This document shows positions 1 through 55,166 of a stretch of DNA of 55,166 bases, in pieces (the first letter of the stretch is position 1; each line of letters starts with the position of its first letter). The notes below the pieces were generated by a model that did no database searches, was not told the origin of the DNA, and saw only the letters and a program-made list of their open reading frames with translations. This DNA is from a virus (taxonomy: Duplodnaviria; Caudoviricetes). The stretch is from positions 1 to 55,166 of the IMG/VR virus record IMGVR_UViG_3300030433_001688; one strand, given 5' to 3'. The position numbers and the translations under genes were made by a program.

Positions 1-98
1 ACTCTTACTGTGAGCAAGGCTGGCCACAAGGAGTCCTAGAAACAACGAGAGATATAAGTGTATATCCCAATCCTGTAACAGACATTTTAAATATTAAA
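1..98. repeat. Terminal direct repeat, copy 1 (circular overlap)
   Basis: Bases 1-98 are identical to 55068-55165; only the final base (99 g vs 55166 a) differs. A reading frame runs unbroken across the join. Confidence 0.97.
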
Positions 99-260
99 GC
101 ACCATCAATAGATATGGTATCTTTGTATAACTATTTAGGTCAAGTTGTTATACAGACTTCTGATAAAACAATAGACCTTTCACACCTTTCAAACGGTGTG
201 TATGAGGTCGTTATACAATACAACTCTAGAATTATTAAAAAGAAAATTATTAAATCATGA
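1..260 (+). CDS. 3' end of the junction-spanning secreted protein: T9SS (Por secretion) type A C-terminal sorting domain
   Basis: Frame from base 3 reads SYCEQGWPQGVLETTRDISVYPNPVTDILNIKAPSIDMVSLYNYLGQVVIQTSDKTIDLSHLSNGVYEVVIQYNSRIIKKKIIKS*. It has the YPNP..ILNI, YNxLGQ, IDLSxLxxGVY and terminal KxIK motifs of T9SS CTDs. Continues the ORF starting at 52841. Confidence 0.92.
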   Translation, partial: SYCEQGWPQGVLETTRDISVYPNPVTDILNIKAPSIDMVSLYNYLGQVVIQTSDKTIDLSHLSNGVYEVVIQYNSRIIKKKIIKS

Positions 261-406
261 ACATTAATTGGATCAATAGCTGGAACGCTAACAACAAAAA
301 AGAAAAGTATCATTTAGAGTGGAGATTAGGAACAATCACTATCCTAGAAATACGTTACGCAAAAAAGTTTAGATTTATGGTTTTAAATGTAGGATTTGAA
401 TTGTGA
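257..406 (+). CDS. 49-aa hypothetical protein (not in ORF track)
   Basis: MNINWINSWNANNKKEKYHLEWRLGTITILEIRYAKKFRFMVLNVGFEL*; ATGA overlap with the upstream stop and TGATG overlap with the downstream start. Confidence 0.75.
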   Translation: MNINWINSWNANNKKEKYHLEWRLGTITILEIRYAKKFRFMVLNVGFEL

Positions 407-1503
407 TGTCATCAGACAAACTAAATAACTGCCGTAAGTATAAAAGGTTACAGTTTTTTCTTTACATGGCAATAATGCTTGTCGTGTTTATTCTTGGTGC
501 GTCTTTAGATGCAAAAGGACAAACGTTGAAAAAAACATTTAAGTTTGCAACTTTTTATGCAGCTGTTAGCGGTGGTAATTCTGTGGCTGACGATAATATT
601 TATTCTGTAACAAATGGATTGCAAACCGATGTTGTAGAAACACCTTTTGATTATTCTATGACTTTGGGTGTGAGAAAGATTGCTAGGTTTGGATATGAAA
701 ATAGAGCGAATACTTTTTACAACGGTACTGAAAGATCGTATAGTGATGCAGCAAACATCGGTAAGGTAAAAGGATTTGAGTTTTTGTTTGAAGCTGACTG
801 GCGAAGGCAGCAGGGTAGAAACTTTTTAGATCAAGATTATTTTCTTCGTTACGTTGCAAAAAACTGGATCGCTAAAGCTGAGTATCTACAAGATGGTTTT
901 GCTGATGTCGAATACTTTGAGGGTTCTCAACGTTTACGTTTAAACGTCAATAGTAAGTTTAGTTTTAACGTAGGTATAGCTCAGCGTATATCAGAGCCAT
1001 ACGGTTACAATCCACTAGACGAGTGGGTGCTACCTAACGGTAGCTTGCACTACACAAGTTTAGCTATACAAGAAGGGTATAGTGTTGACGTTCAGTCAGA
1101 AGAGTACTTTACTCCTAACGGAGAACTTATTGCAAATAGTTCTGACGTATGGGAGCAGGTTGTTATTCCTGAAGTTATCGGTGACTACGTAGATCGTAAG
1201 CGTAGTGAGCTGCCTAATCAATGGAATTATTCTCTTGTTCTGGGTTATGACTATTATCACTTTACAAAAGATTACTGGCTGCACTCTTGGGTTAGTGTTA
1301 TGCCATATCATTTAAAGACAGAAGGTGAGTACTCTTACTTTGAAACTACTGATGGAGCTCAATGGATCGATTACGGTGCAGGCCTTATCTTTGGGTGGAG
1401 ATTAAATAAAAGCCTTGGTGTTTTCTTAGAAGGTAAATACAATAAGTATTGGAATAGAGAATGGCATGACTTTACTGTAGGACTTAATTATGTAATAATA
1501 TAA
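406..1503 (+). CDS. Putative outer-membrane beta-barrel protein
   Basis: Hydrophobic signal peptide ending DAKG/Q; aromatic-rich alternating beta strands; C-terminus GAGLIFGWRLNKSLGVFLEGKYNKYW...FTVGLNYVII resembles terminal barrel strands. ATG at 406 preferred over GTG at 403. Confidence 0.7.
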   Translation: MSSDKLNNCRKYKRLQFFLYMAIMLVVFILGASLDAKGQTLKKTFKFATFYAAVSGGNSVADDNIYSVTNGLQTDVVETPFDYSMTLGVRKIARFGYENRANTFYNGTERSYSDAANIGKVKGFEFLFEADWRRQQGRNFLDQDYFLRYVAKNWIAKAEYLQDGFADVEYFEGSQRLRLNVNSKFSFNVGIAQRISEPYGYNPLDEWVLPNGSLHYTSLAIQEGYSVDVQSEEYFTPNGELIANSSDVWEQVVIPEVIGDYVDRKRSELPNQWNYSLVLGYDYYHFTKDYWLHSWVSVMPYHLKTEGEYSYFETTDGAQWIDYGAGLIFGWRLNKSLGVFLEGKYNKYWNREWHDFTVGLNYVII

Positions 1504-1787
1504 TGGCAAAAGAAATTGGAGAGGATACTAAAGTAACACTAGACCTAAAGACAATAGGTATGGGTGCAGCAGGGCTAGCGGCCCTTATCGGGATGTGGTT
1601 TGCTCTTCAAGCAGACATAGCATTAGCTAAAGAACTGCCTGAGCCGTTACCTGCAGAAGTTACTCGTATGGAGTTTGACATGAAAGATCAACTGATCCGT
1701 CAAACTATTATGACTACACAAGAAGATGTGTCAGAACTTAAAGAAGATCTTGACCGCATCGAAGAAAAGATAGATAAATTACAATGA
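1503..1787 (+). CDS. Single-TM membrane protein with C-terminal coiled coil
   Basis: TM segment IGMGAAGLAALIGMWFAL followed by heptads VSELKEDLDRIEEKIDKL; TAATG coupling to the upstream gene. Confidence 0.75.
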   Translation: MAKEIGEDTKVTLDLKTIGMGAAGLAALIGMWFALQADIALAKELPEPLPAEVTRMEFDMKDQLIRQTIMTTQEDVSELKEDLDRIEEKIDKLQ

Positions 1788-1793
1788 TGAAAA

Positions 1794-2162
1794 ATGAAAA
1801 CTGTTCTAGTATCTGTATTATCGCTTCTATCGTTATTAATGGTGGCGCATGTATCTCCTCTGGAGAGTGCCCCAGAAATTAGTAAAGACGGCATATGTGT
1901 TGCAGAGTTTAACGCTTCGTTCAACTCTCAAAACAGTGTGCCATGGATAGAAAAGCTAAACGACTGCACAACAACCCGTGTAGACATTGCCGATGCTCCA
2001 GAGTTACAGGCGGAGCACAAAATCGTCGTGGTCCCTACAATCGTTGTATTCAACAACGGAGAAGAGGTGGACCGTTTCCAAGCAAACATCATGATGACAA
2101 TGGAGGCAAGCAAGAGTGATGTACAAGATGCTATTGATGAAATTATAATGAGCGACTTCTAA
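1794..2162 (+). CDS. Exported thioredoxin-fold protein lacking CxxC
   Basis: Signal peptide; VAEFNASFN where VxFxAxWC is usual; RVDI...L...I.VVPTIVVFNNGEEVDRF matches the thioredoxin C-terminal half with the cis-Pro. Confidence 0.8.
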   Translation: MKTVLVSVLSLLSLLMVAHVSPLESAPEISKDGICVAEFNASFNSQNSVPWIEKLNDCTTTRVDIADAPELQAEHKIVVVPTIVVFNNGEEVDRFQANIMMTMEASKSDVQDAIDEIIMSDF

Positions 2163-8578: not shown

Positions 8579-8581
8579 GAG

Positions 8582-14622: not shown

Positions 14623-15492
14623 ATGTCAAACGGACCATTATCAGTAGGACAAGCTCAAGCAATAGGCACAGCAGCAGGTGGCGTAGGTCAACTTGTAGGT
14701 GGTATTGTTGGTATGTTAAATCAAGAGGAGCTAGAAGCAACAGCATCAGCAAATTTAAATACTGCTTTACAAGAGCTAGAAGACCTTAGAGCTTCGCAAC
14801 CATCTTTATCTACACCGTCAGCATATTACGAGGGTGTTAAAGGAGCATATGATCAAAGGCTTTTGCAGATGAGGATGGATGATATAAACAGATCTTTAGC
14901 TACCACAGCGCAAGCCGCTACACAGTTTGGTGCTAGAGGGTTAGGTGCTTTAGCTGGAGCTACAGCACAAGCTCAAAGGGCACAAAGGGAAGAGGCTCTT
15001 ACTCAACAGAGGCTACAATCCGAAGCTCTTATGCAGTTAGGTGCTGCTGAAGAAAGAAGCACTCAGTTGCAAGAAGCTCGTAGCACAAGAGATATAGAAT
15101 TTGCATATGATGCTAAAGGTTTAGCAGAGGCTCAGGTAGCGCAAGCTGAGCAGCAAAGAATCCAAAACATTGCTAACGTAGCTGGGGGTATTGCAGGGCT
15201 TGCTGGAGGTACTATTGGAGCTTTGATGAAAGATGGAGGTATGGTAGGTTACAGAGTAGGTGGTAAAACTAAAGAAGCTCCGTTTGTTACAGAAGGCGAG
15301 TTCGATCACGGCACAAACAAAAAAGCTGTTATTGATGAAGAAAGTGGTGTAAAAGAAGCGGAGCTTACTGGGGGTGAGTATGTATTCAACCCAGAGCAGT
15401 CTGAAACATTATTTAAGTTAGCAAAGGAAGGTGATACTCCACTGCATAAATATTTATTAAAATTATTACTAAGATTCGAGAGAGATGTCTGA
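14623..15492 (+). CDS. Putative internal virion/ejection protein
   Basis: Gly/Ala-rich hydrophobic segments, Gln/Ala coiled coil, MKDGG motif, AELTGGEYVFNP; first of three genes after the nozzle. Confidence 0.6.
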   Translation: MSNGPLSVGQAQAIGTAAGGVGQLVGGIVGMLNQEELEATASANLNTALQELEDLRASQPSLSTPSAYYEGVKGAYDQRLLQMRMDDINRSLATTAQAATQFGARGLGALAGATAQAQRAQREEALTQQRLQSEALMQLGAAEERSTQLQEARSTRDIEFAYDAKGLAEAQVAQAEQQRIQNIANVAGGIAGLAGGTIGALMKDGGMVGYRVGGKTKEAPFVTEGEFDHGTNKKAVIDEESGVKEAELTGGEYVFNPEQSETLFKLAKEGDTPLHKYLLKLLLRFERDV

Positions 15493-21000: not shown

Positions 21001-24000
21001 ACTACAAAACATAAAGAAAGTAATACAAACTGTTGTAGGTCAGGGCGGTCAAGTGTTTATTCATGGCACAGCTAAAGCTTTTGAAAAAGCTACAGGCGAG
21101 GAGGTGTCAAGAGGTATTCATATAAAAGATGGCAATCAAGTGCATCTTTTCTTACCTGCTTTGAAAGCAAACACAGCATACCACGAAGCTTTCCACTCTG
21201 CTGCCATGCAAATCGATGAAAAGCAAGGTAAAGGCGCAGCACTACGCAAGCTTGCACGGCAGTTCGCTATGGCTTTACCTAACGCTAAAAGATATCTGGC
21301 TTTTATTAGTGAGTATCTTACTGAAGAGCAACAAGCTTTAGCAGAGGTAGCTGTGACAGACGAGCTTGCTAGAAAGTTATTATCACAAATTGTAGAACAA
21401 AATGCACAAGCTGCGGAGGAACTTGTTGTAGAAATACTCGCTGACATCACTAACGGTGATTTATCAGCAGAGTATAAGCAAGGACTTATAACGTCACTGA
21501 AAAACTACGTAGGTAAATTGTTTGGGACAGAGTTCAAAGATCCTACATTAAAGAACGTAGCTAACGCTATCAAGTCTGTTACCACCACTATGGAGGCAGG
21601 TTTAGGTGTCGCTGGTATGCAAAGACTAGCTGAAGCTACCGAGGATCTCAAAGATGTACCGACAATAACCACTGATGATGATACAGAAGAAGAGTTAAAA
21701 TCACAAGCTCAAAAAATTAGAAGCGGAGATCGTATATCTGGACCAGTAGAAATTAAGACAAAAGAGTTTGTCCCTGAAGTCAGTCAATATGGTTTTAGGT
21801 TGGGAGGTACAGCATACATCCCTGTATCTGTCATGTTAAATTTCCAAGATCGTGGAACTATAGCAGGTAGAGAAAATTATCAAAATGAAGATAGCAGAAG
21901 AAGGATAGAGGAAATTAAAAAGTCTTTATTAAAAGACGGGTATGATGAATCTATACCAGGTGATGCAGGTATAGTCCTAGATGTAGACTCTCAAGGTTAC
22001 GCAAAAATTATTGAAGGAAATCACAGGCTCATAGCTATGGATGAACTTGGTATGAATGTAGTTCCTACAAGTCTACTTATATTGGCTGCTAGGGATGAGT
22101 TTAGATTTCCTAATGATAACCCCCTTAGTTCAAGATACAATGCTGAGGATATGCCTAGACGTATACAACGAAGGTTGGAGGGTATACCAGAGCAAAAAGC
22201 TGAAGGCATTTTAATGTCTAGTGTTGATGCTGAAGGTAATGAAATAAGTGTGCCTATTAATGAATCTTTTGCCCAACAAGGTGCGAGAAGTGGATTCCAA
22301 ATTATAAGTCCTGAAAAGCTTTCAGGGTTTTACGAAAGTGCTAAAAAAGGTAAATATCACATAGGATATGTAAGTATTTGGGAAACAAATCTTGTTGAAT
22401 CTAGAAAGGATGGAGATGGTTTCTTGACATATGAGGACAATCTTATGACTAAAGAGGTAGGTTCTGTTAATGAAGCTGAATCAAATGACAACACTGCAGA
22501 GGAAGGTAAGAGCGCACAGAAGATTGTAGAAACTGTAGCTGACATGCTTACAGAAAAAGGATTTAACTTGGTTATGGAAGGCAAGGGTAAGGACAAAAAG
22601 CTTGTTCTAAAATCATCTAATCAAATCAACTTGTTTAAGATGAAGAAGGATGAGATTTTACAGATCCTTCAGGATAGCGGTATGAAGAAAGAGCAGGCAG
22701 AAAAGACATACAAAAATGCTGTTCAGTTTGCTAGGGGTAGAAGAGCTGCTAGAAAAGAGGCTGCTAAGATAGCCTCTCAAGCTAGACGTAGAGAGGGTAA
22801 GCTATCTACAGAGGCTAAAAATTTACGTAAGCAACTGCAAGAACTTAAGGACAAGTCTAAGAGTTTGCAAGAGTTCTTTAACAAAGCTAAGGCTCTTATT
22901 AAAGAGCGTATGAAAGATAGGAAGACGTCTGATAAGTTTACTGCTGCACAGCTCAATAGTTTCTTCACTATAGCTGGCCAGATGGCACGAACTTCAGCAA
23001 AGAGGCTGTCGGAAAACGAACTCGATATTATAGACTCATTCCTCGATAAAATAGCTACCATATTCGATAAGCAAGATGCAAAAAAAGCGATGGACGATCA
23101 CCTTGATCTTGTTAAGAGTATGCGTAAGCTGCAGAAAACTTTGGTTAGAAAGTCTAAACAAAAAGACTTTGGAGCATACAGGTCCCTCGCAAGAATCGTG
23201 GCTGGCATAAACCCTTCGCTCATACCTGTTGATCAGATGCAGTCGTTCTCTGACTTTGTTAATGACGTCAACAATAGTATGAAGAGGGCTAGGTTTAGTA
23301 AAGATGAAGAGGGTAATCTAGTTGTAACAGCATCTAACCTCAAAGAGGTAAAATCTCTGATGGCTATAGCTACAAACTTCAAAGCCATAGAAGAAGTAGA
23401 AAGAGATGCAAACTTCAGAGCTAGGGCAACTAAAGCTGTTGAGGCAGCAGAAAAAGCTGGGAAGTCAACAACATTTGAAGAGGAGTACAAAGCTATACTA
23501 GAAAAGTATCAGAGAAGTAGACTAAGCCCTACACGCAAAAAGATAGAGGACACAGCGAAAAAGCTAGGTCTTGATGTAAACAATGTACAGGATTTAGAGA
23601 TTATACTCGATGAGCTAGCTAAGGATAGCGCTGAGTTAGCAGAAAACAAAAAGGATCTTATCTTATCCGACGCTATTATCCCAAGAGTTATGGCTAACCT
23701 TGAGGAGTTACTGCAGGACACATCGTTTAGAACAATACTAGGTTTGTTTAGTATGGATAACGTTTCTGCACCAGAACTTAAGGCTAGACTTATGCAGCTC
23801 GATATGAGACATCTAGCAGCTTTGGAGTACAAGATCAATGACTACTTAGTAAACTCTTCTACTATAGGTCTTGGGTACTTAGCGTCTATAGTAAGGGGTA
23901 AGATATCTTTAGCTAGTGATATCAAAGCTCTTGTAGCAAAAGGTGTTAGATCTAAAGACAGATCTTACGGAAGCTTTGCCGATAACGTCCCTTCATTTAT

Positions 24001-26773: not shown

Positions 26774-27237
26774 GACTAAGCAAAAACTTTACTCTCTCTG
26801 AGCTTACACGCAGTAGTACAGCAAAAAGAAAGGGTATAAAAAATGAGCCTACAGAAGCTCACAAGAAAAATCTACAACGTATTGTAACACAGATACTACA
26901 GCCTATGCGTGATCAGTTAGGCCCTATCCGTGTAACTAGCGGATACAGATCACCTAAATTAAATCGCTCTATTGGTGGTAGTACAAAGTCGCAGCACTGC
27001 AAAGGTCAGGCTGTAGACATCCAGTTCTGGGACAAAGGCGTTATGAAAAACAAAGTCATATACGATTACATCGTGCAAAACGGGATTGAGTTTGATCAGA
27101 TGATCAACGAGTTTGACTTCTCGTGGATACACATATCGTTAAAAGACAAAGACAACAGAAACAGAATCCTCGAAGCGTATAAAGATGATGATGGAGATAC
27201 GTGCTACAAAGAGGTAAAAGAAAATATAGTACTATGA
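26770..27237 (+). CDS. Endolysin, peptidase M15A family
   Basis: LSKNFTLSEL, VTSGYRSPKLNRSIGGSTKSQHCKGQAVDI and WIHIS zinc-peptidase motifs. Confidence 0.92.
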   Translation: MRLSKNFTLSELTRSSTAKRKGIKNEPTEAHKKNLQRIVTQILQPMRDQLGPIRVTSGYRSPKLNRSIGGSTKSQHCKGQAVDIQFWDKGVMKNKVIYDYIVQNGIEFDQMINEFDFSWIHISLKDKDNRNRILEAYKDDDGDTCYKEVKENIVL

Positions 27238-27662
27238 AAAAAATAAAAGACACAAAGCTAGGTAGCTGGTTAAAAAGCAAAGCTCCACAAGTTTTAGATG
27301 TAGTAGGAGACTTGCTACCAGATAGCGGTGGGTTGGGTGTAGTAAAAAATCTTATCGATAAAGATCCAGAGGTAGACTCTGCAGACGCTCAATCTCAGAT
27401 CGATGCTGAGGTAAGATTTCAAGAAAATGTAACGGAGCGCTGGAAAGCTGATATGGGTAGCGATGTAAAACTAGCAAAGCTTATACGCCCTGTAACATTG
27501 ATTGCTTTGATGACCATGTTTATGGTGACAATGTTTATTGACAGTATGGATAACGTGCCTTTTAATGTAAAGGACTCCTACGTAGACCTACTACAGATCC
27601 TCATGCTTACTGCCTTCGGAGCTTACTTCGCTGGTCGCACCATTGAAAAGGCTAAAAAGTAA
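27234..27662 (+). CDS. Putative holin (3TM GTA-holin-like)
   Basis: ATGA overlap with the endolysin; RWKADM.SD..LAK.IRP plus two TM helices, ending AYFAGRTIEK. Confidence 0.7.
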   Translation: MKKIKDTKLGSWLKSKAPQVLDVVGDLLPDSGGLGVVKNLIDKDPEVDSADAQSQIDAEVRFQENVTERWKADMGSDVKLAKLIRPVTLIALMTMFMVTMFIDSMDNVPFNVKDSYVDLLQILMLTAFGAYFAGRTIEKAKK

Positions 27663-44022: not shown

Positions 44023-44628
44023 ATGCAGGGCGTATATCATTTTATTGTAAGTGTACCAAAGAAATTTGAGGACACTTTAAAGCTTGGGGATAAAGAGATA
44101 TTCTTAGAAAGTAAGTTTAACGAGTTTGAGCATAGGATCTCTTATGGAGAGATTATAGCTACACCTATGAAACATCCAGATCTAGAGTGTAAGCCTGGTG
44201 ACACCCTTATATTTCACCATCATGTAACAACAAATCCAGCATTGAACTTAGGCGACAAAAGACACCTTGTTCTTTACGATGCAGAAAACGGGAGGATGAG
44301 TCAAGCAATAGCATATAGAGATAAAGATTCTGGAGAGTTGCATATGCTTTCTGACTGGCTGTTTGTTTTACCTGTAGACGAAAGAGAAGATGAGGTTTCT
44401 GAAAGCGGTATTATAACAGAGCTTGCAACACAAAAAGAACTGCCTGATGAGGCAGAAATATATATGCCTCATCCAGAGTTAGAAGCTCAAGGTGTAAAGC
44501 CAGGTGATATTGTAGGTTTTGATAAAAACTCTGACTATAAGATAAAGCTAGATAATGGCGATGTTGTTTATAGAATGAGAGTAGACGATATAAGCTATGT
44601 CAAAGTTTACGACGGAGAGTGCAGCTAA
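44023..44628 (+). CDS. groES: GroES-like co-chaperonin, apparently two tandem domains
   Basis: Second half SDWLFVLP...SESGII...GVKPGDIVGF...YRMRVDDI; first half G.IIA.P...KPGDTLIF. Confidence 0.8.
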   Translation: MQGVYHFIVSVPKKFEDTLKLGDKEIFLESKFNEFEHRISYGEIIATPMKHPDLECKPGDTLIFHHHVTTNPALNLGDKRHLVLYDAENGRMSQAIAYRDKDSGELHMLSDWLFVLPVDEREDEVSESGIITELATQKELPDEAEIYMPHPELEAQGVKPGDIVGFDKNSDYKIKLDNGDVVYRMRVDDISYVKVYDGECS

Positions 44629-44881
44629 AAGGCTTATGTCTTCTATGGAGCAGGCCATAGACAATATGATTAGTGAAATTAAAAAACCTGTTGATCAAGA
44701 AATCAATGGTAGCGCACGTAAAGCTGAGTTGCAGTCTATAAAGCAAACTGCTATTGATTGCAAAGAGCTTCTTATAGAACGTCAGAAGTTAGAGCAGATG
44801 TTAAAAGATCTTTCTAGTAACGGACAAATAGAAGAAGAGGCTGATTACAGTAGCGGTTTTGCAGAACGTTTTTCTAAATAA
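44597..44881 (+). CDS. Helical protein, candidate terminase small subunit
   Basis: Directly upstream of terL; ends SGFAERFSK. Confidence 0.5.
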   Translation: MSKFTTESAAKRLMSSMEQAIDNMISEIKKPVDQEINGSARKAELQSIKQTAIDCKELLIERQKLEQMLKDLSSNGQIEEEADYSSGFAERFSK

Positions 44882-47019
44882 TGCTTATCGATGTTAATGA
44901 ATATGATGAGCAAGCTGTTGGCATATGCCCCGATGGTACGCAGGGTAAAGTTATCACGATTAGTGGTCTACACATTATGCTTCCCAAACAACCAGCCGAT
45001 TCCGATATTGCCTTCTACGACCTTCCGCAGGAGGAGCAATATTGGAGGCGTCAAGAACTACCCAAAGAGTTGCTTAGGATTCGCAGTATGGACGAGTGGA
45101 TGGAGGCGCCGAGCGAGTTTAGAAAAAGGTTTCGTCCGTATATCGAAGAAGAATTTAGACGTAGGCGTCAGGGTTTTTGGTTTTATAATAACGGCACACC
45201 TGTCTATATATCGGGGCGTCATTACATGTTCCTACAATGGTCCAGAATAGATATAGGCTATCCGTCGTATCTTTCTTACCAACGTGAAATCTATCTACAC
45301 ATGGCTGCGTGCGAGTCTGATCCTCGCTGTATCGGTCAGCTATATACTAAGTGTCGTCGCTCTGGCTATACCAATATCTGTGCTTCTGTTCTTGTGGATG
45401 AAGCTACACAGGTTAAAGATAAGCTTTTGGGTATACAGTCGAAAACTGGTAAAGACGCTCAGGAAAATATCTTTATGAAAAAAGTGGTCCCGATTTTTAA
45501 ATCGTACCCTTTCTTTTTCAAACCTATACAAGACGGTACTACAAACCCTCGTATGGAGCTAGCTTTCCGAGAACCCTCGAAACGTATCACAAAAAACAAC
45601 AAAACTTCTGCAAAAGGTGAAGCGTTAAATACAATCATCAATTGGAAGAACACCACTAACAATGCGTATGACGGAGAGAAGCTACACCTATTGTATCTTG
45701 ATGAGGCAGGTAAATGGGAAAAGCCAACCGATATAAAGGAGGCGTGGAGGATACAAAGAACTTGCCTTATTGTAGGTAGGAAGATAGTAGGGAAGTCTTT
45801 GGTTGGTAGCACAGTCAATCCTATGGACAAAGGTGGTAAGCAGTATAAAAAGTTATGGGAGGATTCTGATCCGTGTATGCGTAATGCTAACGGAAGAACT
45901 GTATCTGGATTGTACAGATTGTTCATACCAGCTTACGATGCGTTAGAAGGATTCTTTGATATTCATGGAGATGCTGTTATAGAAGATCCTAAGTCACCAG
46001 TCGAAGGTATTGATGGAGAAATTGTAGCTTTTGGATCTAAGACGTTTTTAAAAAACGAGAGGTCTGCTATGAAGACTGACGCTAGGGAACTCAATGAGTT
46101 TATACGTCAGTTTCCGTTTTCTCCTGAAGAAGCTTTTAGAGATAGTATAGAGGGTAGTCTGTTTAATATAGGAAAGATCTATGAGCAGATAGAACACAAT
46201 GATGGGTTGTACCCTAATCCTATAGTTCAAGGAAACTTTGTATGGGTAGGCGGAAAGCGTGACGGTAACGTAGCTTTTAGACCTATGGCTGACGGAAGGT
46301 GGAGGGTAGCATGGATGCCTCCAGCGGAAATGCAGAACAAAAGAGTTTTAGAAAGGGGTAAGCTTATAGCACCAAACGCTTCATTCGGCTGTGGGGGTGT
46401 CGACTCTTATGATCTTGACGCTACAGTTGATGGTAGAGGTTCAAAAGGTGCGTGCCATTTGTTTAACAAGTTTAATATGGTGTATCCCTCTAACATGTTT
46501 GTTGCGGAATATGTAAGCCGCCCTCCTATGGCTAAGATCTTTTATGAGGATATACTTATGGCTTCTTTCTTTTATGGGTATCCATTACTTATAGAGAATA
46601 ATAAATACGGAATCGTTAGATACTTTGAAGAACGTGGATATGATGGTTATGTGTTGGATAGACCAGATCACTTAAAATCATCTAGTTACAGTAGCAACGT
46701 AAAAACAAAAGGTATCCCGTCTAACTCACAAGACGTACTCCAAGCGCATGCTCAAGCTGTAGAAGACTATATCCATCAACATGTGGGGTATAATGAAGAT
46801 GGAGATATAGGAAAAATGTATTTTAATCGCACATTAGAAGACTGGATAGGTTTTAAAATAAATGATAGAACAAAGTATGACCTTACGATAAGTTCTGGCC
46901 TGGCTTTGCTAGCATCTCAAAAGGTAGACAAGAAAATAAAAAAGAGTAATTTTAACGAGAAAACTTTTTTCAGAAAATACAAATACAACTCTTCGGGCCC
47001 CTCAATTCTAAAAAAGTGA
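44881..47019 (+). CDS. terL: Terminase large subunit
   Basis: KCRRSGYT (Walker A variant), LYLDEAGKW (Walker B), GSTVN; nuclease domain GVDSYD, LIENN and YDLTISSGLAL. Confidence 0.93.
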   Translation: MLIDVNEYDEQAVGICPDGTQGKVITISGLHIMLPKQPADSDIAFYDLPQEEQYWRRQELPKELLRIRSMDEWMEAPSEFRKRFRPYIEEEFRRRRQGFWFYNNGTPVYISGRHYMFLQWSRIDIGYPSYLSYQREIYLHMAACESDPRCIGQLYTKCRRSGYTNICASVLVDEATQVKDKLLGIQSKTGKDAQENIFMKKVVPIFKSYPFFFKPIQDGTTNPRMELAFREPSKRITKNNKTSAKGEALNTIINWKNTTNNAYDGEKLHLLYLDEAGKWEKPTDIKEAWRIQRTCLIVGRKIVGKSLVGSTVNPMDKGGKQYKKLWEDSDPCMRNANGRTVSGLYRLFIPAYDALEGFFDIHGDAVIEDPKSPVEGIDGEIVAFGSKTFLKNERSAMKTDARELNEFIRQFPFSPEEAFRDSIEGSLFNIGKIYEQIEHNDGLYPNPIVQGNFVWVGGKRDGNVAFRPMADGRWRVAWMPPAEMQNKRVLERGKLIAPNASFGCGGVDSYDLDATVDGRGSKGACHLFNKFNMVYPSNMFVAEYVSRPPMAKIFYEDILMASFFYGYPLLIENNKYGIVRYFEERGYDGYVLDRPDHLKSSSYSSNVKTKGIPSNSQDVLQAHAQAVEDYIHQHVGYNEDGDIGKMYFNRTLEDWIGFKINDRTKYDLTISSGLALLASQKVDKKIKKSNFNEKTFFRKYKYNSSGPSILKK

Positions 47020-47056: not shown

Positions 47057-49507
47057 ATGGAGTACGGACAAAGTAAAGGAACATACGGCAACTTCCCAGA
47101 TCCATTTGCAAGTCCCATAGAAAAGGCTTCAAATGAATACGGACTAAAATACGCTAAAGCTATCCACGGTCAGTGGGGCTCTGGCGAGGATTCTTCATCT
47201 CTACTAAATCGTAGGATGTATGAGTTTGAAAAAAATAGAGACTACGCTAACGGAACGCAGGATACTTCTATCTATAAACAGATACTTAACTCTCTCGATC
47301 CCAACAATGGTGACGGGACGTTACTTAATATAGACTGGTCCCCTGTACCTATCGTGCCTAAGTTCGTAAAGGTCGTTGTAAATAGAATACTTTCTCGTAA
47401 GCCTTATCCTGCTGTCGAAGCTATAGATCCAATATCTAAGCAAGAAAAAGAAATGCAGAAGGCTAAGATAAACTCTACGATAAAAAACAAAAAAGAGTTT
47501 ACAGAGGCTAAGCAGTTAGGATTGACTATGGAGCTTGATCCAGAAAGTGTACCAGACACTACTGAGGAAGCGGAAATATTCTTAGACGAAAACATAAAGA
47601 CTAGCGCAGAGATGGCAGCACAGCTAGCTACATCTCTTACTTTGGATTGGAATGATTTCGATGAGCATATATATAGGCGCTCTGTCAATGATCTTGTTAC
47701 ATGTGGTATAGGCGTTGTAAAAAGAAATAACGATCCCAACTACGGTATTACTGAAGAGTATGTAGATCCTTCATTCTTCGTACATAGCTATACTGAAGAT
47801 CCTAATATGAATGACATCGTTTACGCAGGTCATGTAAAGCGTATGTCTATTATGGATCTCAAGCGTATGGCTGGCGACGAGTTTACGGAAAAGGAGTACG
47901 AAGAAATGGCTAGAAAGGTAATGCATAAAAGCTATAACGATTCTGGTAAGTTTGCTAGCGGAGGTTACGATAGGAGTGGCAGAAAGATGACGTATGGATA
48001 TGACGATTATCTTATCGACGTATTACAGTTTGAGTTTAAAAGTGTAGACGAAGTTTTCTATGAAAGTAAAGAATCTCAGTTTGGTAATGTAGGATTCTAT
48101 TTTAAAGGTAGCGAGTACAAGCCAGTTACTGATTCTGTATACGAAAGGCAGCCATACAAGATGGATGTAGAGACAGTATATGGAGGTTGTTATATTGTAG
48201 ATAGCGGTAGGTTATTTAACTACGGTCAACAAAAGAACATACCAAAAAATGTTCATGATATATCTAAGTGTACACTTTCTTATAGTATAGCCTGCACAAA
48301 TATTAGAAGAATGATGCCTAAGTCTTTGGTAGGTAGCGTTACTGGATTTGCTGATCAACTACAATTAACACACTGCAAGATCCAACAAGCTATTGCTAAA
48401 GCTAAGCCAGATGGATTGATTATAGATATAGAAGGTTTAGAAAACGTCCAGCTAGGTAGGGGTGGTGAGCTTAGTCCTTTAGAGATTCAGGACATATACG
48501 AGCAGACAGGTATTATGTACTATCGTTCTAAGAATCCAGAGGGAGGTTTTCAAAATCCGCCGATACGTTCTATAGAAAATCAGATAAGAAACATAAACTC
48601 TTTTATTAGTCTATACAATCACTACCTACGCATGATTCGTGACGCTACTGGCGTTAATGAAGTTATGGATGCTTCTACTCCAAAAGGCGACGCTCTTGTG
48701 GGTGTTCAGCAACAGGCTATCGCTGCAGGTAATAACGCATTGTACGATATTACTAATGCCTCTCTTGTTTTATACAAGAAGGTGTGTTCTGATATTGTTA
48801 AGTGTTTACAAATTATACCAGAGGATTCTATACTTTATAGCGTGTATAAAAAGGCTATAGGTAAACACAGTATGGAGATCCTTACGTCATTTAAAGATCT
48901 CCCTATGTACAACTTTGGAGTGAGGGTTGTTAAAACGATGTCAGATGATGACCGTATTTTCTTAGAGCAAAACCTTCAAGCTTCTTTAGCTCAGAAAGAA
49001 ATAGATCTAGAAGATGCTATGGCTGTACGTCAGCTGAAAGATATTGATCAAGCTCAAAAACTTCTTATCGTAAGAAGGAAGAGAAGGATAAACATGCTTC
49101 AACAGCAGCAACAGCAAAATATTCAGGCTCAGTCTCAAGCCAACGCTCAAGCAGCTCAAGCTGCTTCTCAAGCTAAGCAGCAAGAAATGCAGATGGAAGC
49201 TCAGCTCGAAGCGCAAAAAATACAGCTCAAAGGTCAAGTAGACGTTCAGGTAGCTCAGGCTATGCACCAGATGAGTATGCAGCTAGAGCAGCTAAAGGCT
49301 CAGATTGCTGGAGGAACTCGTTCTGGAGAACAGATGTTTAGAGAGAAGCTTGAAACAATGAAGGACGATAGAAAAGACCAGAGGGTAAAGAAACAAGCTA
49401 TAGAGCAGTCTAAACTTATCTCTCAAAGAAAAGGTGAGCGTGCTCCCTTAGCAGATGTAGAGTCTGACAATCAAGATATACAAAACTTTTTACAATCAAT
49501 GATATGA
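47057..49507 (+). CDS. Portal protein
   Basis: 816 aa after terL; LNIDWSPVPIVPKFV, YSYTEDP-like, IRDATGVNE..D.S.P motifs; Gln-rich C-terminal coiled-coil barrel. Confidence 0.88.
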   Translation: MEYGQSKGTYGNFPDPFASPIEKASNEYGLKYAKAIHGQWGSGEDSSSLLNRRMYEFEKNRDYANGTQDTSIYKQILNSLDPNNGDGTLLNIDWSPVPIVPKFVKVVVNRILSRKPYPAVEAIDPISKQEKEMQKAKINSTIKNKKEFTEAKQLGLTMELDPESVPDTTEEAEIFLDENIKTSAEMAAQLATSLTLDWNDFDEHIYRRSVNDLVTCGIGVVKRNNDPNYGITEEYVDPSFFVHSYTEDPNMNDIVYAGHVKRMSIMDLKRMAGDEFTEKEYEEMARKVMHKSYNDSGKFASGGYDRSGRKMTYGYDDYLIDVLQFEFKSVDEVFYESKESQFGNVGFYFKGSEYKPVTDSVYERQPYKMDVETVYGGCYIVDSGRLFNYGQQKNIPKNVHDISKCTLSYSIACTNIRRMMPKSLVGSVTGFADQLQLTHCKIQQAIAKAKPDGLIIDIEGLENVQLGRGGELSPLEIQDIYEQTGIMYYRSKNPEGGFQNPPIRSIENQIRNINSFISLYNHYLRMIRDATGVNEVMDASTPKGDALVGVQQQAIAAGNNALYDITNASLVLYKKVCSDIVKCLQIIPEDSILYSVYKKAIGKHSMEILTSFKDLPMYNFGVRVVKTMSDDDRIFLEQNLQASLAQKEIDLEDAMAVRQLKDIDQAQKLLIVRRKRRINMLQQQQQQNIQAQSQANAQAAQAASQAKQQEMQMEAQLEAQKIQLKGQVDVQVAQAMHQMSMQLEQLKAQIAGGTRSGEQMFREKLETMKDDRKDQRVKKQAIEQSKLISQRKGERAPLADVESDNQDIQNFLQSMI

Positions 49508-49863
49508 GTTCAGTAGTAAACCTCGATGTATCCAAAAGATTAGATATCACCTGCAGAAAGGGCGATACGTTTAATCTTGTTATAAATGTTACTGACGCTG
49601 CTGGTGCAGTGGTAGATCTTACTACATACTCTTTTAAAATGGAGGTGCGTGCTACAGATACTTCTGAGGATTCTGTTATAACAAATGATCAGTTAACCAT
49701 TACTGGAACATCTGGCGGTGTTATTACGATTACTATACCAGCAAACATCATGGCTGGTATTACTAGCGGATTGTACACATACGATCTACAGACGATAGTA
49801 TCTGGTGTAACTCAAACATGGCTTCAGGGCGTGTTGCAAGTAAATGAGGATGTTACAGTATGA
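49504..49863 (+). CDS. Putative fibre adaptor (BppU-like beta sandwich)
   Basis: GDTF.L...D..G..VDLT.Y...M.VR...G.ITITI...G.Y.YDLQ...L.G...V..DVT pattern. Confidence 0.6.
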
Positions 49864-51578
49864 GCGATATAAACTTAAGCATATCGACAGGCACTAATGT
49901 GCTTACACAGGCTGTAGGCAGTGATGAAGTAAACTTAGCTTTATCTAGCACAACCAATGTGCATACTACATCTATACAGACGCAGAATAATTTGTCCGTA
50001 GATGTCGGTATTGGCCCACAAGGCCCACAGGGACCTCAAGGAGATACTGGAGCTACTGGACCTCAAGGACCCCAAGGACCTCAAGGAGCTCAAGGACCTC
50101 AAGGACCTCAAGGAGACACTGGTGCTACTGGAGCTACTGGAGCTACTGGAGCTACTGGTGCTACTGGAGCTCAAGGTCCTGCTGGGGCAGCAGGTGCTGA
50201 TGGCACTACATTTACAGCTGGTGATGGCTTAGACTTAACAGGAGGCACTTTATCTGCTGACTTAAAATCTAACGGAGGTCTAGTTATAGAATCAAGTAAG
50301 TTAGCTGTTGATCTTGGAGCTTCTTCTATTACTGGAACTTTAGCTATTGGAGATGGAGGTACGGGCAGCACTTCTACAACATATTGTAATTTAACATCTA
50401 ATGTAACAGGAACGCTGCCTGTTGCCAATGGAGGCACAGGCGCTACAAGTTTTACAGCTAATGAATTACTTTTTGGTAATGGAACAAGCGCAATACAAAG
50501 TTCAAGCAACTTAACATATAATGGTTCAATACTTTCTATTATAGATAGTGATAGCTTTCAGCCTGTGTTACAATTAGAAAACACTAAAAATAACGCACTT
50601 TCAGGAAACATAATATTTGCAAAAAGTAGAGATTCAGGAACTTCTGCCGATGGAGATAAAATTGGACAGATTTATTTTATTGGTCATGATGACGCTGGTA
50701 ATACAGGACAACAGTATGGTTTAATAGAGTGTGCTTCTAAAGAAACTGGTAGCGGTCAAGAGGGTGGAAAAATATTAATGCAAGTTGCCTCTCATGATGG
50801 AAGCGCAGTTACTGGATTTACAATAGAAGATGGAGATGCAAGTGGTGAGGTAGATGTTACAATAGGAGCAGGTGCTGCTTCAACAACTACTATAGCTGGT
50901 ACTCTTACTATGGGTAGTACAGCATTTGTAAACAATAGTGGTGTAATACAAGTAGCTACTCAAGGCACTATTGATCATGATTCATTAGCAAACTTTTCTG
51001 CAGATGAACACTTTACTCAAGCAAATATTGTTGCTACTGGCGCTTTGAATAGCGGAAGCATAACTTCTGGTTTTGGTAATATAGATATAGGTTCTAGTAC
51101 GCTTGATACCACAGGAGATGTGTCAACTGGGCAGCTTTCAGCTAGATCAGTAATTCACTCAATTAGCGGTAATAGTGCTGGTGATTTTGGAACTGGCGCT
51201 GAAATATTAACGGGCATAAGTAATGATAGCGTTACTGCTGGAGCCATATATGTTTTAAGAAATGGTGTATGGACATTAATAGATGCTGATGCAGAGACTA
51301 CTGTAAATCAAATAGTTGGTGTTGCAACAGCTGCTGCAGGAAGCGGAAACTCTTCAAATGGTATGATTATAAAAGGATGTGTAACATTAAATTCTACATA
51401 TACCGCAGGTACTGACAGTGAAGGAGCAATAGTATATGCATCGGCAACGGCTGGGGAAGCTACACTTACAGCTCCATCTTCTTCTGGTCAATTTGTTAGA
51501 ATACTTGGACACTCTCTTAATGTAAGCGACAAAAAAATGTTCCTTAACCCAGATAACACATTCGTAAAAATAGCGTAA
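49860..51578 (+). CDS. Collagen-like tail fibre
   Basis: 21 GXY triplets; [13 protein letters not shown] fibre repeats; C-terminal G..T.TAPS.SG.FVRILG...FLNPD domain. Confidence 0.85.
50013..50201 (+). repeat. 9-bp tandem repeats encoding collagen GXY
   Basis: GGACCTCAA and GGAGCTACT units. Confidence 0.9.
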
Positions 51579-52144
51579 TGGGTTATATAGACGAAACATT
51601 GATATTTGAGTCTGACAGGATATATTATACAGATGAGGCATTTGGAGGGGAAATGCAGGTCATGATGTCTTGGGAAGATCCTATAATGAAAGCATCTGCT
51701 AATTATGTGTGTGAAGGAGGTGGAGATATATTAGAAATAGGATTTGGTATGGGAATATCTGCTGAACATATTCAGTCTAACTCTATATCATCCCACACCA
51801 TAGTAGAAAACCACCCTCAAGTTATAGAGAAAGCTAAAGCTTGGGCTGCAGGTAAGCCTAATGTCACCATAGTAGAAGGAGGTTGGTATGAAGTAAAAGA
51901 TTCTTTATCTACTTACGATGGAGTGTTTTACGATACATGGGGAGAAGATGACTGGACTTTATTTAGTACTACTATAGCATCATTATGTAAGCCTGGAGCA
52001 AAAGTTACATGGTGGAACGCAAATGCTTATGCTAATACTATTCATAACATAGAAGGTGTTTCATATGAAGCTATTTCTGTAAATCCTAAGTCTAATATGT
52101 ATTTTAATTCGACTACATATTACCTCCCTAAAAAAGTATTTTAA
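51578..52144 (+). CDS. Class I SAM methyltransferase, Rmt2/guanidinoacetate methyltransferase-like
   Basis: VMMSWEDPIM, ILEIGFGMGIS, HTIVENHPQV and YDGVFYDTW motifs. Confidence 0.85.
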   Translation: MGYIDETLIFESDRIYYTDEAFGGEMQVMMSWEDPIMKASANYVCEGGGDILEIGFGMGISAEHIQSNSISSHTIVENHPQVIEKAKAWAAGKPNVTIVEGGWYEVKDSLSTYDGVFYDTWGEDDWTLFSTTIASLCKPGAKVTWWNANAYANTIHNIEGVSYEAISVNPKSNMYFNSTTYYLPKKVF

Positions 52145-52822
52145 ATGCCTACTATAAACTTAAATAAAGGTGGTAGGATTATAGGTACAGTTGATACAAC
52201 TCAAGCAGCAGCTAGAGATGAAGCTTCTGGCACATCCACAGCACAAGGCACAGCTCAAGATAGTGCTGTTCAATACTTTAAAAGCGCAGGTAGAGGTGGA
52301 GGTACATTTAGATATATAAGATCTTTTTTACAATTTGATTCATCATCTATTACATCTGCAGTAGGTACTGCTGTTTTAAATATAGAGAGTCAAGGTATAT
52401 CTAGTACTGCTGATGTTATAGTTTGTGCAAGTGACGCTTTTGGTGGGGCAAGTGATGATCTTATAAATGACGATTTTAATAATGTAGATTTTAGTACTGC
52501 ATATTCAAGCGAACTTTCTACTTGGAATGCTAATGGAGCAAATAATGCTATTACATTAAATGCGGCAGCTCGTACAGCTATTCAAAATAATAATAGTTTT
52601 ATATGTGCTATTGTAGATCATGATAGTGATTTCCAAGACACTGACAATCTTTCTGGTGTATCAAACGGAAGCCAAACTGTAGGCATAGATTTTTCTGGGA
52701 CAATAACTTTAGTGGTTACGTTAGCAGGATATGCTAATGACGTTAATCTTGTAGCTAGTGCTAACATAGGTGAGGTTAATGGTGTAGCCAGTGGTGATAT
52801 AGAAAAAATAATAGGTGTGTAA
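52145..52822 (+). CDS. Putative virion protein
   Basis: RSFLQFD.S.I...A.L pattern; C-terminal VNLVASANIGEVNGVASGDIEKIIGV repeat. Confidence 0.6.
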   Translation: MPTINLNKGGRIIGTVDTTQAAARDEASGTSTAQGTAQDSAVQYFKSAGRGGGTFRYIRSFLQFDSSSITSAVGTAVLNIESQGISSTADVIVCASDAFGGASDDLINDDFNNVDFSTAYSSELSTWNANGANNAITLNAAARTAIQNNNSFICAIVDHDSDFQDTDNLSGVSNGSQTVGIDFSGTITLVVTLAGYANDVNLVASANIGEVNGVASGDIEKIIGV

Positions 52823-52840: not shown

Positions 52841-55166
52841 ATGAAAAATAAATCTTACTTATTGGTTTTTTTATTTTGGGTGATAGCATCATGTGTATTA
52901 GGACAACCTAGCAACGACAGTATACCTCCTATTTGCTCTGGTGTTCAAAATCTTCAAGGGCAAATTGATTGCTTTCCTTTTGCGCCAAATCAAGGTCAAC
53001 TACAAGTCATGTGGACTATACCTGAACCTGGATGTAATCCAGTTGGATTTTATAGGGGTGATGACTTAGATAATTTACAATTTGTGCCATACGGTCAATG
53101 GTTTGATGGTAGTTTTTACGGTGGTGTGCCGTCTTCACCTGTGTCAAATGATGAATACTATTTTATAGTAGAGTCTCCTGGTGGCATTATGGATACACTA
53201 ATCGTTGAAAATCCAAACTGCGGTATTGGCTGTTTAGATTCTTTAGCGACAAACTATAATCCTTTTGCTGGTATAGAGAGTGAATTTGGGGAGTCTTGTC
53301 AGTATGGTGAAGTATCAGAGTGTGGTAATATATTTACCCAAAAAGTATATGTAAGTATAACCGCAGATACATATTCTCAGTGGGAAACAAGTTGGGAGAT
53401 AGTCACAACAGATAGTATCCCGATAGTATTGGCTAGTGAAGATATAGGTTTTTATCAAACAGAGGGACTTACTGTAACAACAGAATACTGCATACCTCTT
53501 GGAGTTGAGTTTACTTTTAACATATACGATACGTTTGGAGATGGACTTGCAGGATCTACAACAGGTGGATTTACAGATGGAGACGTTCTTGTGTATACAG
53601 AGTGTGGTAATACTATATACAGCATACTGCCGTTTGAAGGACAGAATCCTGACTACGGATATGAAGCGATTAGTGAACCTAATTTACTAAACCCATGCCC
53701 TCCAGACAATCCGCCATTTGGTTGCTTAGATCCAGAATACTTAGAGTTCAACTCCCTTGCTACAAACAATGATTCTAGTTTATGTGTAACTCCTGCTGTT
53801 CCAGGATGCCTTAACGAGAATGCATTTAACTACGATCCAGAGGCAAATATCATGGATTATATTCCTGAGTGTGAATACACGCTTATGTTATTTGACGGAG
53901 GTGGTGACGGCTGGGATGGATCTTATTTAGGTGTTGTGCAGGACGGCGAACCTATTGGTGCGTTTACATGCACAGAGGAGCAAGCCTTCTATGATATAAC
54001 AGTAAGCTCTCAAACACATGTAGAGTTTAAGTTTTACGAAGTAGAGTTTGGCAGTTTCTTTGGTGAAGGTGGTACGAGCACTGATGTATCACAATGTGGA
54101 TTCAAATTAATAAGTCCTAATGGAAATATAGTCTTTGAGAAGGGAACTAATCCATGGTTAGATCCAATAGATCCTGATCAGGTATATACACCATATTTAA
54201 GATGCGGTAATTACTGTGAGCCATATACATATGGATGCACAGATGAATCTGCACAGAACTACAATAGTGATGTTAACACAGAAGATGGTAGTTGCTATTA
54301 TCAAGCTGGCTGCGCACAAGCTGGTTATCTAGAATATTACACTCAGGGGTACGAGGCTGATTTTGATGACGGCAGTTGCCAAACGGTAGCTGTTTTTGGC
54401 TGTATGGATCCTGATGCTTTTAACTACAACGAAGAAGCAAATGTTGACAACGAAGGTTGCATTCCTGTTGTGCTGGGTTGCATGAATCCTTTGGCTTATA
54501 ACTATCTACCATCTGCTAACGTAGACGATAACAGCTGTATACCTTATATATATGGCTGTATGGATCCATCGGCTTACAACTACAATGAAAATGCAAACAT
54601 TGATGATGGAGAGTGTGAGCCTTTTGTATACGGATGCACTGACAACAGTATGTTTAATTACAATCCTGCAGCAAATGCTGAATACGATCCATCGAACTGC
54701 GAGCCTTATATTTATGGTTGTACAGATCCTAGCATGCTTAACTATGATGCCTCTGCTAATACAGAAGACTTTAGTTGCATACCTTACATTTATGGTTGCA
54801 CTGATCCTGAAGCTCTCAACTATGATGAACTTGCTAACACAGACAACGGCTCTTGTATCGATGTACTAGTTGACTGCATGGATCCTGATGCATACAATTA
54901 TAATGAATTAGCAAATACACCAGATGAAGATGCATGTCTATATGACGCAGGGTGCATAGGTGGTCCTGGTGAACCCTACTGGTTAAACGATGGCTGTTAC
55001 GCTTGGATTATCGATATAGATCCTTACTGCTGCGAAGTTGCTTGGGATGAAGCATGTGTAGATCTATACTCTTACTGTGAGCAAGGCTGGCCACAAGGAG
55101 TCCTAGAAACAACGAGAGATATAAGTGTATATCCCAATCCTGTAACAGACATTTTAAATATTAAAA
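52841..55166 (+). CDS. Secreted Cys/Asp-rich repeat protein with T9SS CTD (828 aa across the junction, ends at base 260)
   Basis: Missed by the ORF track because it has no stop before the window end. Signal peptide MKNKSYLLVFLFWVIASCVLG/Q; about 12 GCxDxxAxNYxxxAxxDxxxC-type repeats; DTFGDG and DGGGDGW motifs; IDPYCCEVAWDEAC; YPNP CTD. Confidence 0.92.
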   Translation, partial: MKNKSYLLVFLFWVIASCVLGQPSNDSIPPICSGVQNLQGQIDCFPFAPNQGQLQVMWTIPEPGCNPVGFYRGDDLDNLQFVPYGQWFDGSFYGGVPSSPVSNDEYYFIVESPGGIMDTLIVENPNCGIGCLDSLATNYNPFAGIESEFGESCQYGEVSECGNIFTQKVYVSITADTYSQWETSWEIVTTDSIPIVLASEDIGFYQTEGLTVTTEYCIPLGVEFTFNIYDTFGDGLAGSTTGGFTDGDVLVYTECGNTIYSILPFEGQNPDYGYEAISEPNLLNPCPPDNPPFGCLDPEYLEFNSLATNNDSSLCVTPAVPGCLNENAFNYDPEANIMDYIPECEYTLMLFDGGGDGWDGSYLGVVQDGEPIGAFTCTEEQAFYDITVSSQTHVEFKFYEVEFGSFFGEGGTSTDVSQCGFKLISPNGNIVFEKGTNPWLDPIDPDQVYTPYLRCGNYCEPYTYGCTDESAQNYNSDVNTEDGSCYYQAGCAQAGYLEYYTQGYEADFDDGSCQTVAVFGCMDPDAFNYNEEANVDNEGCIPVVLGCMNPLAYNYLPSANVDDNSCIPYIYGCMDPSAYNYNENANIDDGECEPFVYGCTDNSMFNYNPAANAEYDPSNCEPYIYGCTDPSMLNYDASANTEDFSCIPYIYGCTDPEALNYDELANTDNGSCIDVLVDCMDPDAYNYNELANTPDEDACLYDAGCIGGPGEPYWLNDGCYAWIIDIDPYCCEVAWDEACVDLYSYCEQGWPQGVLETTRDISVYPNPVTDILNIK
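55068..55165. repeat. Terminal direct repeat, copy 2
   Basis: Identical to bases 1-98. Confidence 0.97.

Follow-up and report, generated by a model that had tools for sequence, protein, structure and literature searches.

A protein gene that runs across the ends of the 55,166-nucleotide (nt) virus record IMGVR_UViG_3300030433_001688 (hereafter the window, that is, the whole stretch of DNA analysed here) is intact and belongs to the late genes of a phage that looks lytic. Its 828-amino-acid (aa) product, which we refer to as the fibre, carries the full sequence signature of a type A cargo protein for the Sec and type IX secretion system (T9SS) pathways. We found the fibre to be the variable member of a conserved, phage-borne set of four genes for envelope proteins, often located beside a holin gene. 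The other three members encode a protein resembling an outer-membrane barrel, a 94-aa protein that has a single transmembrane helix and a 122-aa exported protein with a thioredoxin fold. We favour, at about even odds, a reading in which a T9SS-exported fibre and a spanin-like trio act on the envelope of the host during the late phase of infection. Phage-encoded T9SS cargo is already published in concept; the linked set, its spread and its constraint are new.

The record, retrieved from IMG/VR (38% G+C; CheckV completeness 100%), carries a 98-nt terminal repeat, with bases 1-98 identical to bases 55068-55165. Such an end overlap is what assembly of a circular or terminally redundant genome gives. 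IMG/VR nevertheless classes the record as linear because its last base, 55166 (A), disagrees with base 99 (G) and thereby breaks the repeat, probably an end effect of the assembler. An open reading frame (ORF) at 52841..55165 encodes 775 aa and is open at its 3' end, and a 5'-open frame of 85 aa at 3..260 continues it. Joining the two around the genome ends confirmed the 828-aa ORF proposed by the initial annotation, a reading made from the sequence alone.

This ORF also occurs unbroken in L002, a locus within a 37-kb viral contig that matches the window at 99.07% identity in one uninterrupted stretch leading from the portal gene through the junction to the capsid genes, and whose 828-aa protein differs from that of the window by a single residue. 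Logan contigs of the sequencing runs X1, X2 and X5, which stem from two studies, bridge the junction with at least 31 letters on each side; the piece from run X6 did not extend far enough to do so. The run that best holds the sequence may be the window's own sample, and no RNA run was among the sequencing runs listed as holding the gene. Because the ORF becomes visible solely after joining the ends of a record classed as linear, one could suspect that these contig ends are artefacts of assembly or a chimera of host and phage. L002, more than 20 further viral contigs with the gene intact between the same flanks, and the contigs of three runs refute this explanation, to which we assign practically no weight.

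The fibre starts with MKNKSYLLVFLFWVIASCVLG followed by QPS, placing a Gln at +1 of the predicted cleavage site. Signal peptides were called by a rule of thumb (Lys or Arg, then a hydrophobic run). L002 and the window share the same signal peptide, for which the hydropathy averaged over 10 aa reaches 3.08 (value from L002), and the Gly-Gln step falls at residues 21/22. By the same rule, 31 of 31 relatives have a signal-like N-terminus, followed by Ala, Gly or Ser plus Gln in 30 of them and by Ser-Lys in one. A Gln after the site of signal cleavage corresponds to the Q-rule of Bacteroidetes (PMC5837995), and exported proteins obeying this rule are encoded by phages of Porphyromonas gingivalis (PMC10367356).

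At its other end, the fibre carries a C-terminal sorting domain (CTD). Hidden Markov model (HMM) searches with the joined ORF exceeded the cut-offs of both PF18962 (Por_Secre_tail; 50.3 bits, cut-off 27) and TIGR04183 (47.3 bits, cut-off 23), with a match that spans profile positions 1-75 of 75 and stops 2 residues short of the stop codon; the type C model scored 11.4 bits against a cut-off of 40. An AlphaFold 2 (AF2) model of residues 462-828 was built from L002, which is identical to the window in this part (mean predicted local distance difference test score, pLDDT, 83.9). The best Foldseek match of its CTD was 8glk_D, the CTD of NucA bound in the T9SS translocon of Flavobacterium johnsoniae (TM-score 0.81 on the target, root-mean-square deviation (rmsd) 2.0 over 75 columns, 31% identity, E 1.5e-4). 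Further matches in the PDB comprised 8glj_D, 8qb1_A and 7pq4, with the CTDs of FspA, RemA, mirolase and RgpB, and solved CTDs were likewise matched at the sequence level by the fibre family profile. The CTD is kept in 21 of 22 complete phage copies. The signal peptide, the Gln behind it and the CTD named in the initial annotation have thus all held up, while its suggestion that the protein might jam the translocon found no support.

Known type A cargo proteins, such as NucA, RemA and FspA of F. johnsoniae and RgpB of P. gingivalis, share with the fibre the Sec signal, a C-terminal sorting domain of ~75 aa and the beta-sandwich fold of that domain. Unlike these, the present protein is phage-encoded and known from sequence, its passenger has no family match, and it belongs to a four-gene phage set.

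In the window, the fibre gene is followed in direct succession by the genes for the barrel-like, the transmembrane and the thioredoxin-fold protein. The four genes were together in 31 viral loci found with the fibre, even at ~60% portal identity, where the fibre head is still 90-96% identical. Of 78 metagenome loci, 58 encoded a homologue of the barrel-like protein next to the fibre, as did 37 of 44 further viral loci. A search baited with the barrel-like family matched at least 543 viral contigs. Among the best 80 of these loci, which represent the closest relatives, the fibre was present in 74, including 43 out of 43 with at least 4.5 kb on both sides; the six loci without a fibre were all cut at a contig end. 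Most loci had the gene order fibre, barrel-like, transmembrane, thioredoxin-fold; two further arrangements were also seen. Among the 80 loci, 27 contained a homologue of the window's holin at a distance of up to 8 kb, which in nine was no more than 400 nt from the set, and in some metagenome loci an endolysin gene directly followed the set.

The set is inherited together in phages whose backbones are unrelated and range from 13 to 298 kb. Of the earlier interpretation of this locus, a phage gene with a cargo signature that is not a chimera stands; the membership of the fibre in a four-gene set was not part of it. As for its immediate surroundings, the fibre gene of most relatives sits directly after the gene for a 119-aa protein that follows the portal. 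The stretch at 49860-52822, which encodes a tail fibre, then a methyltransferase-like protein (188 aa) and a 225-aa protein, is absent or replaced in most of them.

Across 12 complete phage copies, the ratio of nonsynonymous to synonymous substitution rates (dN/dS) of the fibre had a median of 0.075, with dS near 1, so the high protein identity reflects constraint and not recent transfer. Split by part, dN/dS was 0.028 for the beta-sandwich part, 0.045 for the repeats, 0.21 for the CTD and 0.67 for the signal peptide. The head of the fibre is exchanged as a cassette between near-identical phages. L026 and L027 have flanks that are 92-99% identical and the same signal peptide and C-terminal part, around a head of 29-30% identity; relative to the window, both the tail fibre and the head of the T9SS fibre are swapped in them. 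At many loci, a barrel-like gene of 82% identity stands beside a head of 30% identity. A quick tree of the core placed the short forms of the phages in two places (midpoint root; SH-aLRT 98 and 100). In an unrelated backbone, a gene at positions 6007-7977 of L030 encodes the same signal peptide and fibronectin type III (FnIII) head (93% identity to P0001 across 153 aa), joined to a different, Cys-containing body without a CTD; this is the one complete copy in which the CTD is missing.

The fibre family looks virus-borne rather than recently captured from a host. More than 5,500 clusters match it, which together with the dN/dS of 0.075 argues against a chance ORF, and of three viral relatives present in BFVD, one was already annotated as a sorting-domain protein. 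Long forms of 1,150-1,340 aa were considered as host genes and rejected, their loci being gene-dense, one-stranded and of 31-35% G+C, with the same neighbours. A search with one of the long forms returned 44 loci, every one of them an IMG/VR record and some of 120-298 kb; four of five of these large records contain exactly one CTD gene.

On the cellular side, two pattern scans of 185,579 species genomes yielded none in the first and five short partial matches—nothing full-length—in the second, and 401 sampled Bacteroidota genomes gave 0 matches at E 1e-30. As these searches were samples and pattern scans, some cellular copies may exist. Tblastn returned no fibre from 50,697 GenBank phages. A 680-aa T9SS protein from a Bacteroidales metagenome-assembled genome (MAG; L034, 2594-4636) has a distant copy of the DGGGDGW domain immediately preceding its CTD, and the N-terminal part of this protein may be a cysteine peptidase.

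Between its two address tags, the fibre is Cys-rich (43 Cys) and strongly acidic (127 Asp plus Glu versus 16 Lys plus Arg). It contains 11 clear GCxDxxAxNYxxxAxxxxxxC units and a degenerate one, recognized by eye, at residues 490-513, matching the roughly 12 two-Cys repeats originally described. The DxxGDG motifs of that description are present as DTFGDG at residue 230 and DGGGDG at residue 352. Nine of the 12 repeats form one block (Table 1), and the other three lie at residues 130-153 and 294-344. AF2 predicted the repeats to form an extended, loop-rich rod (block pLDDT 87-95; predicted TM-score 0.39). Disulfides and Ca2+ binding are plausible for the fibre.

A second model, of residues 22-465 (pLDDT 85.5), suggested an FnIII-like domain at the N-terminus, with VIA matches to 5x83_C (Z 8.7, rmsd 2.6 over 90 residues) and to 7zn4_c, a tail-tip domain of phage T5 (Z 9.2); this is a common fold. 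The two beta-sandwich domains that follow, B and C, each with an invariant acidic GDG loop, had no family match in Pfam, NCBIfam or PHROGs. Fold searches with residues 22-465 returned generic rows of tandem beta-sandwiches from the PDB with Foldseek, and both VIA lists were filled by FnIII. For residues 462-828, the model had no standout PDB match besides the CTD. Nothing in the passenger exceeded the cut-offs of Pfam, NCBIfam or PHROGs, and the sub-threshold hits NiFe_hyd_SSU_C, GM130_C, LysM_RLK and T4_Y03C were set aside as effects of the Cys repeats.

The fibre family profile weakly matched the hinge of MPEG1 (perforin-2; 6u2j_A, E 0.0051, 27 residues), and a relative, P0083, had a weak hit to MACPF_D3 (E 0.023). 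The MPEG1 hinge resembles the repeats in having a unit of 24-28 aa bracketed by two Cys; on the other hand, these matches are weak and short, and the two-Cys unit is unnamed in curated families. Both this repeat and the beta-sandwich domains with the GDG motif are frequent, yet nameless in the libraries searched. The heads of relatives contain MAM in 8 of 40 cases and a CBM48-like module in 1 of 40.

Turning to the three partners, the barrel-like protein is listed with 366 aa, and its likely start is an ATG near position 466, as its relatives have ~345 aa. It has 3,442 close homologues, forming 390 clusters at 50% identity. Heuristics suggest a barrel, with 18% aromatic residues, ~12-15 amphipathic beta segments, no membrane helix and an invariant Gln after the signal peptide, and a language-model lead from the Atlas gave 0.93-0.94 to barrel families. 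Ten distant members of the family had no match to an outer-membrane-protein Pfam family, and tblastn found no match to the protein in GenBank phages. A predicted complex of its residues 40-366 with the CTD (score 0.00, mark 0.32) counts neither way.

The PorZ-PorQ, PorU-PorV and SprB-SprF pairs are examples of T9SS cargo with a dedicated outer-membrane barrel. Like them, the present set combines a gene for a CTD protein with an adjacent, co-inherited gene for a barrel-like protein; its barrel-like protein, however, shows no sequence likeness to the known partners (hhalign probability no higher than 1.2%, nothing in NCBIfam or Pfam).

The 94-aa protein has no Cys; its single transmembrane helix precedes a conserved, charged region that resembles a coiled coil. 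In the 122-aa protein, the thioredoxin family PF00085 reached 21.5 bits, below its cut-off of 23.5, and TIGR01068 an E of 1.7e-5. Its 85 distinct relatives have FNAxFNxAN in place of WCGPC and share a conserved Asp-Cys further on, and the fold may serve as a binding or chaperone module rather than as a redox enzyme.

These features suggest the following sequence of events. The fibre would cross the inner membrane by Sec, with its signal cut before Gln22, and up to 21 disulfides would form in the periplasm. The CTD would then take the protein through the host SprA/PorV translocon to the cell surface, where the rod of repeats would hold the head domains outward. As infection ends, the four-gene set would target the envelope of the host, with the conserved trio working in the manner of a spanin to bridge the outer membrane or break through it. 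The swappable fibre would alter what the infected cell or its debris binds; blocked adsorption or superinfection, or adhesion, are conceivable outcomes.

A stricter version, in which the four genes specify one trans-envelope device composed of an inner-membrane coiled coil, a redox-dead periplasmic thioredoxin fold, an outer-membrane barrel and a T9SS-planted fibre, and thus of a kind missing from current schemes of lysis or exclusion, is tentative, and we hold it to be unlikely. If it applied, the phages of a single abundant clade of marine Bacteroidota, ranging from podovirus-like genomes of 55 kb to those of ~300 kb, would need such a device for exit or surface control, and hijacking of the T9SS would be a routine step of phage infection in the ocean. 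Should the set act in lysis, it would provide a new route of outer-membrane breach in a phylum with poorly known spanins; should it act in surface display, lytic ocean phages would re-dress their hosts through the hosts' own secretion system.

Outer-membrane disruption without spanins is an open question (PMC6139136). Two-component spanins such as lambda Rz/Rz1 (PMC6139136) pair a small, coiled-coil-like inner-membrane protein with an outer-membrane protein, a layout that the 94-aa and barrel-like proteins may share, and they too are often encoded beside the holin and endolysin. The present set departs from them in its outer-membrane partner of ~345 aa without a lipobox, in two additional members and in the lack of Cys in the 94-aa protein.

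Several observations weigh against a late envelope function of the whole set. Its link to lysis genes is not universal, as it lies ~25 kb from the endolysin and holin genes in the window and no holin was seen within 8 kb in 53 of the 80 loci; the strict linkage with the fibre may also fail further out, those loci being the closest relatives. Tblastn found the set absent from the cultured Flavobacterium and Cellulophaga phages in GenBank, and because such phages lyse their hosts without it, the set is not generally needed for lysis in the phylum. That the host has a T9SS is something we infer.

The barrel nature of the 366-aa protein, too, depends on the heuristics and the language-model lead. 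Searches of Pfam and NCBIfam with the protein returned nothing at E <=0.1 (PF19572, PF11751 and the T9SS models included) and the PDB gave no sequence match at E <=10. Hhalign gave probabilities of 1.2%, 0.4% and 0.2% to PorV, PorV-like and PorP, with templates that were single sequences of one Bacteroidales MAG, so that a distant relation may exist. Finally, a lipoprotein of the type of an o-spanin was sought with a pattern search for lipobox ORFs of at least 25 aa on the plus strand between 300 and 2600, which found none.

With these points in mind, other explanations deserve consideration. In keeping with the initial annotation, the fibre may be a stand-alone surface-display moron that by itself blocks superinfection or the adsorption of progeny to infected cells, its neighbours being an unrelated set for lysis or the envelope. 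Exchange of heads next to a conserved trio is expected of a part that meets outside partners, and L026 and L027 differ from the window in precisely the tail fibre and the fibre head. Surface parts that depend on the T9SS matter for adsorption in this phylum, since T9SS and gliding mutants of Flavobacterium psychrophilum are phage-resistant (PMC9804748), and for the variable T9SS cargo of phages, such a role was put forward by Bellas et al. 2020 (PMC7468147). A chance neighbourhood fits poorly with a fibre and trio that were never apart at the 43 loci with room for both and that stayed together through three gene orders, and we consider this explanation unlikely.

Alternatively, all four proteins could constitute one new apparatus for lysis or exit, suited to the envelope of this host clade, whose T9SS-planted fibre would be needed to breach or peel the outer layer, much as other lysis accessories are specific to a host envelope. 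The position of the set next to the holin or endolysin gene in many relatives would suit such an apparatus, as would a putative inner-membrane coiled-coil protein paired with an outer-membrane protein, an arrangement known from two-component spanins (PMC6139136). The set yielded no spanin of the classical type, and its occurrence in unrelated backbones of 13 to 298 kb fits a host-specific need. With its presumed 21 disulfides and heads that vary and resemble adhesins, the fibre would be an odd part for lysis, though, and the set is 25 kb from the holin in the window, making this account distinctly unlikely in our view.

The same architecture—FnIII, beta-sandwich heads and a stalk, with MAM and carbohydrate-binding-like heads in relatives—would befit an adhesin by which infected cells stick to particles, algae or neighbouring hosts, raising encounters between progeny and hosts. 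A head dN/dS of 0.028 within a type is consistent with a fixed ligand; this proposal leaves the linked trio unexplained, and we regard it as improbable. Very improbable is a virion part, be it decoration or fibre, with a relic signal peptide and CTD. The gene does belong to the late block, FnIII domains are common on virions, and the genes immediately ahead of it in most relatives encode the portal and a small protein that weakly hits BppU_N-like families. Yet a relic would hardly keep its signal peptide in 31 of 31 copies and its CTD in 21 of 22 complete ones, the latter under purifying selection (dN/dS 0.21), and the 42 Cys of the mature part need an oxidizing compartment.

A point missing from the initial annotation is that phage-encoded T9SS cargo had been published before: Bellas et al. 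2020 (PMC7468147) described three variable T9SS-CTD genes in 'Cryophage', called them unique and proposed that they change the surface or affect superinfection. As here, the phage-encoded type A cargo of 'Cryophage' varies between near-identical phages, and the proposed roles are the same. It differs in coming from phages of glaciers and in comprising one endoglucanase, one GH39 and one PA14 protein, with no linked envelope genes described in the accessible portions of that paper (PMC7468147). The present cargo, by comparison, is a fibre built with Cys repeats; it is linked to three other exported proteins and recurs widely among viral contigs from the sea.

Our search of the full-text literature returned Bellas et al. 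2020 as the sole report of phage T9SS cargo and no paper on the four-gene set, which might be listed in the supplements to that study; López-Pérez 2017 (PMC5628999) yielded no passage on the set. The fibre emerges as a conserved component, under strong selection, of marine viral contigs that number in the hundreds, its partner barrel gene being present in at least 543. For many viral contigs without an assigned host, the CTD and the Q-rule mark the host phylum.

Table 1 Coordinates of the fibre gene and its parts, the three partner genes and the lysis genes in the window
Feature	Position	Strand	Evidence or remark
T9SS cargo (fibre) gene, 5' part (residues 1-775)	52841..55166	+	last 99 bases repeat the window start
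T9SS cargo (fibre) gene, 3' end with stop codon (residues 744-828)	1..260	+	bases 1-98 duplicate 55068-55165
Signal peptide (residues 1-21), then Gln22	52841..52903	+	sequence
FnIII-like domain (residues 22-129)	52904..53227	+	AF2 model, VIA
Beta-sandwich domain B, invariant D..GDG loop (residues 161-286)	53321..53698	+	AF2 model, alignment
Beta-sandwich domain C, DGGGDGW motif (residues 345-459)	53873..54217	+	AF2 model, alignment
Nine of 12 two-Cys repeats (residues 465-699)	54233..54937	+	motif search, AF2 model
Cys-rich helical module before the CTD (residues 700-746)	54938..55078	+	conserved family-wide; helices, pLDDT 54-71
Type A T9SS C-terminal sorting domain (residues 747-828)	12..257	+	HMMs, Foldseek
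Outer-membrane-barrel-like protein, 366 aa as listed, signal peptide, invariant Gln40	403..1503	+	heuristics, alignment
94-aa protein, one transmembrane helix, then conserved charged coiled-coil-like region	1503..1787	+	81 distinct relatives aligned; phrog_1009, function unknown
122-aa exported thioredoxin-fold protein without CxxC	1794..2162	+	HMMs, alignment
M15 endolysin	26770-27237	+	far from the four-gene set here, adjoining it in many relatives
Holin	27201-27662	+	far from the four-gene set here, adjoining it in many relatives

The remainder of the window is that of a tailed phage, with a large terminase (44881-47019), a portal (47057-49507), virion proteins at 4547 to 9391 and a collagen-like tail fibre (49860-51578), in addition to a primase-helicase, an exonuclease and Erf. 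In agreement with the earlier statement that no lysogeny genes are recognizable, no integrase family was detected among the window ORFs scanned, a scan that covered the small ORFs incompletely. The terminase has 103 relatives in GenBank, every one below 60% identity: 68 from Flavobacterium phages, 15 from Cellulophaga phages, 11 uncultured, three labelled Bacteriophage, two each from Tenacibaculum and Azobacteroides, and one each from Maribacter and Caudoviricetes. From these relatives and the Q-rule, we infer a Bacteroidota host, probably a marine flavobacterium. The nearest terminase relative, MW202828, has no CTD gene, the terminase-portal DNA had no blastn match among GenBank phages, and the phage's own genome contained no PorV match.

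Some further features of the window are worth recording. A scan for sigma-70 promoters and terminators was uninformative (28 sites versus 19.1 expected), this promoter type being the wrong one for Bacteroidota. The C-terminal half of a 201-aa protein (44023-44628) matched Cpn10 (GroES) with 22.1 bits at a Pfam cut-off of 21.1, and the related podovirus MW202828 has an annotated groEL and a 10-kDa chaperonin. The structural block contains two giant ORFs, at 9391-14619 (1,742 aa) and 18035-26773 (2,912 aa), and an 848-aa protein (15485-18031) contains an endolysin-like stretch (phrog_181); the three are probably ejected or internal virion proteins.

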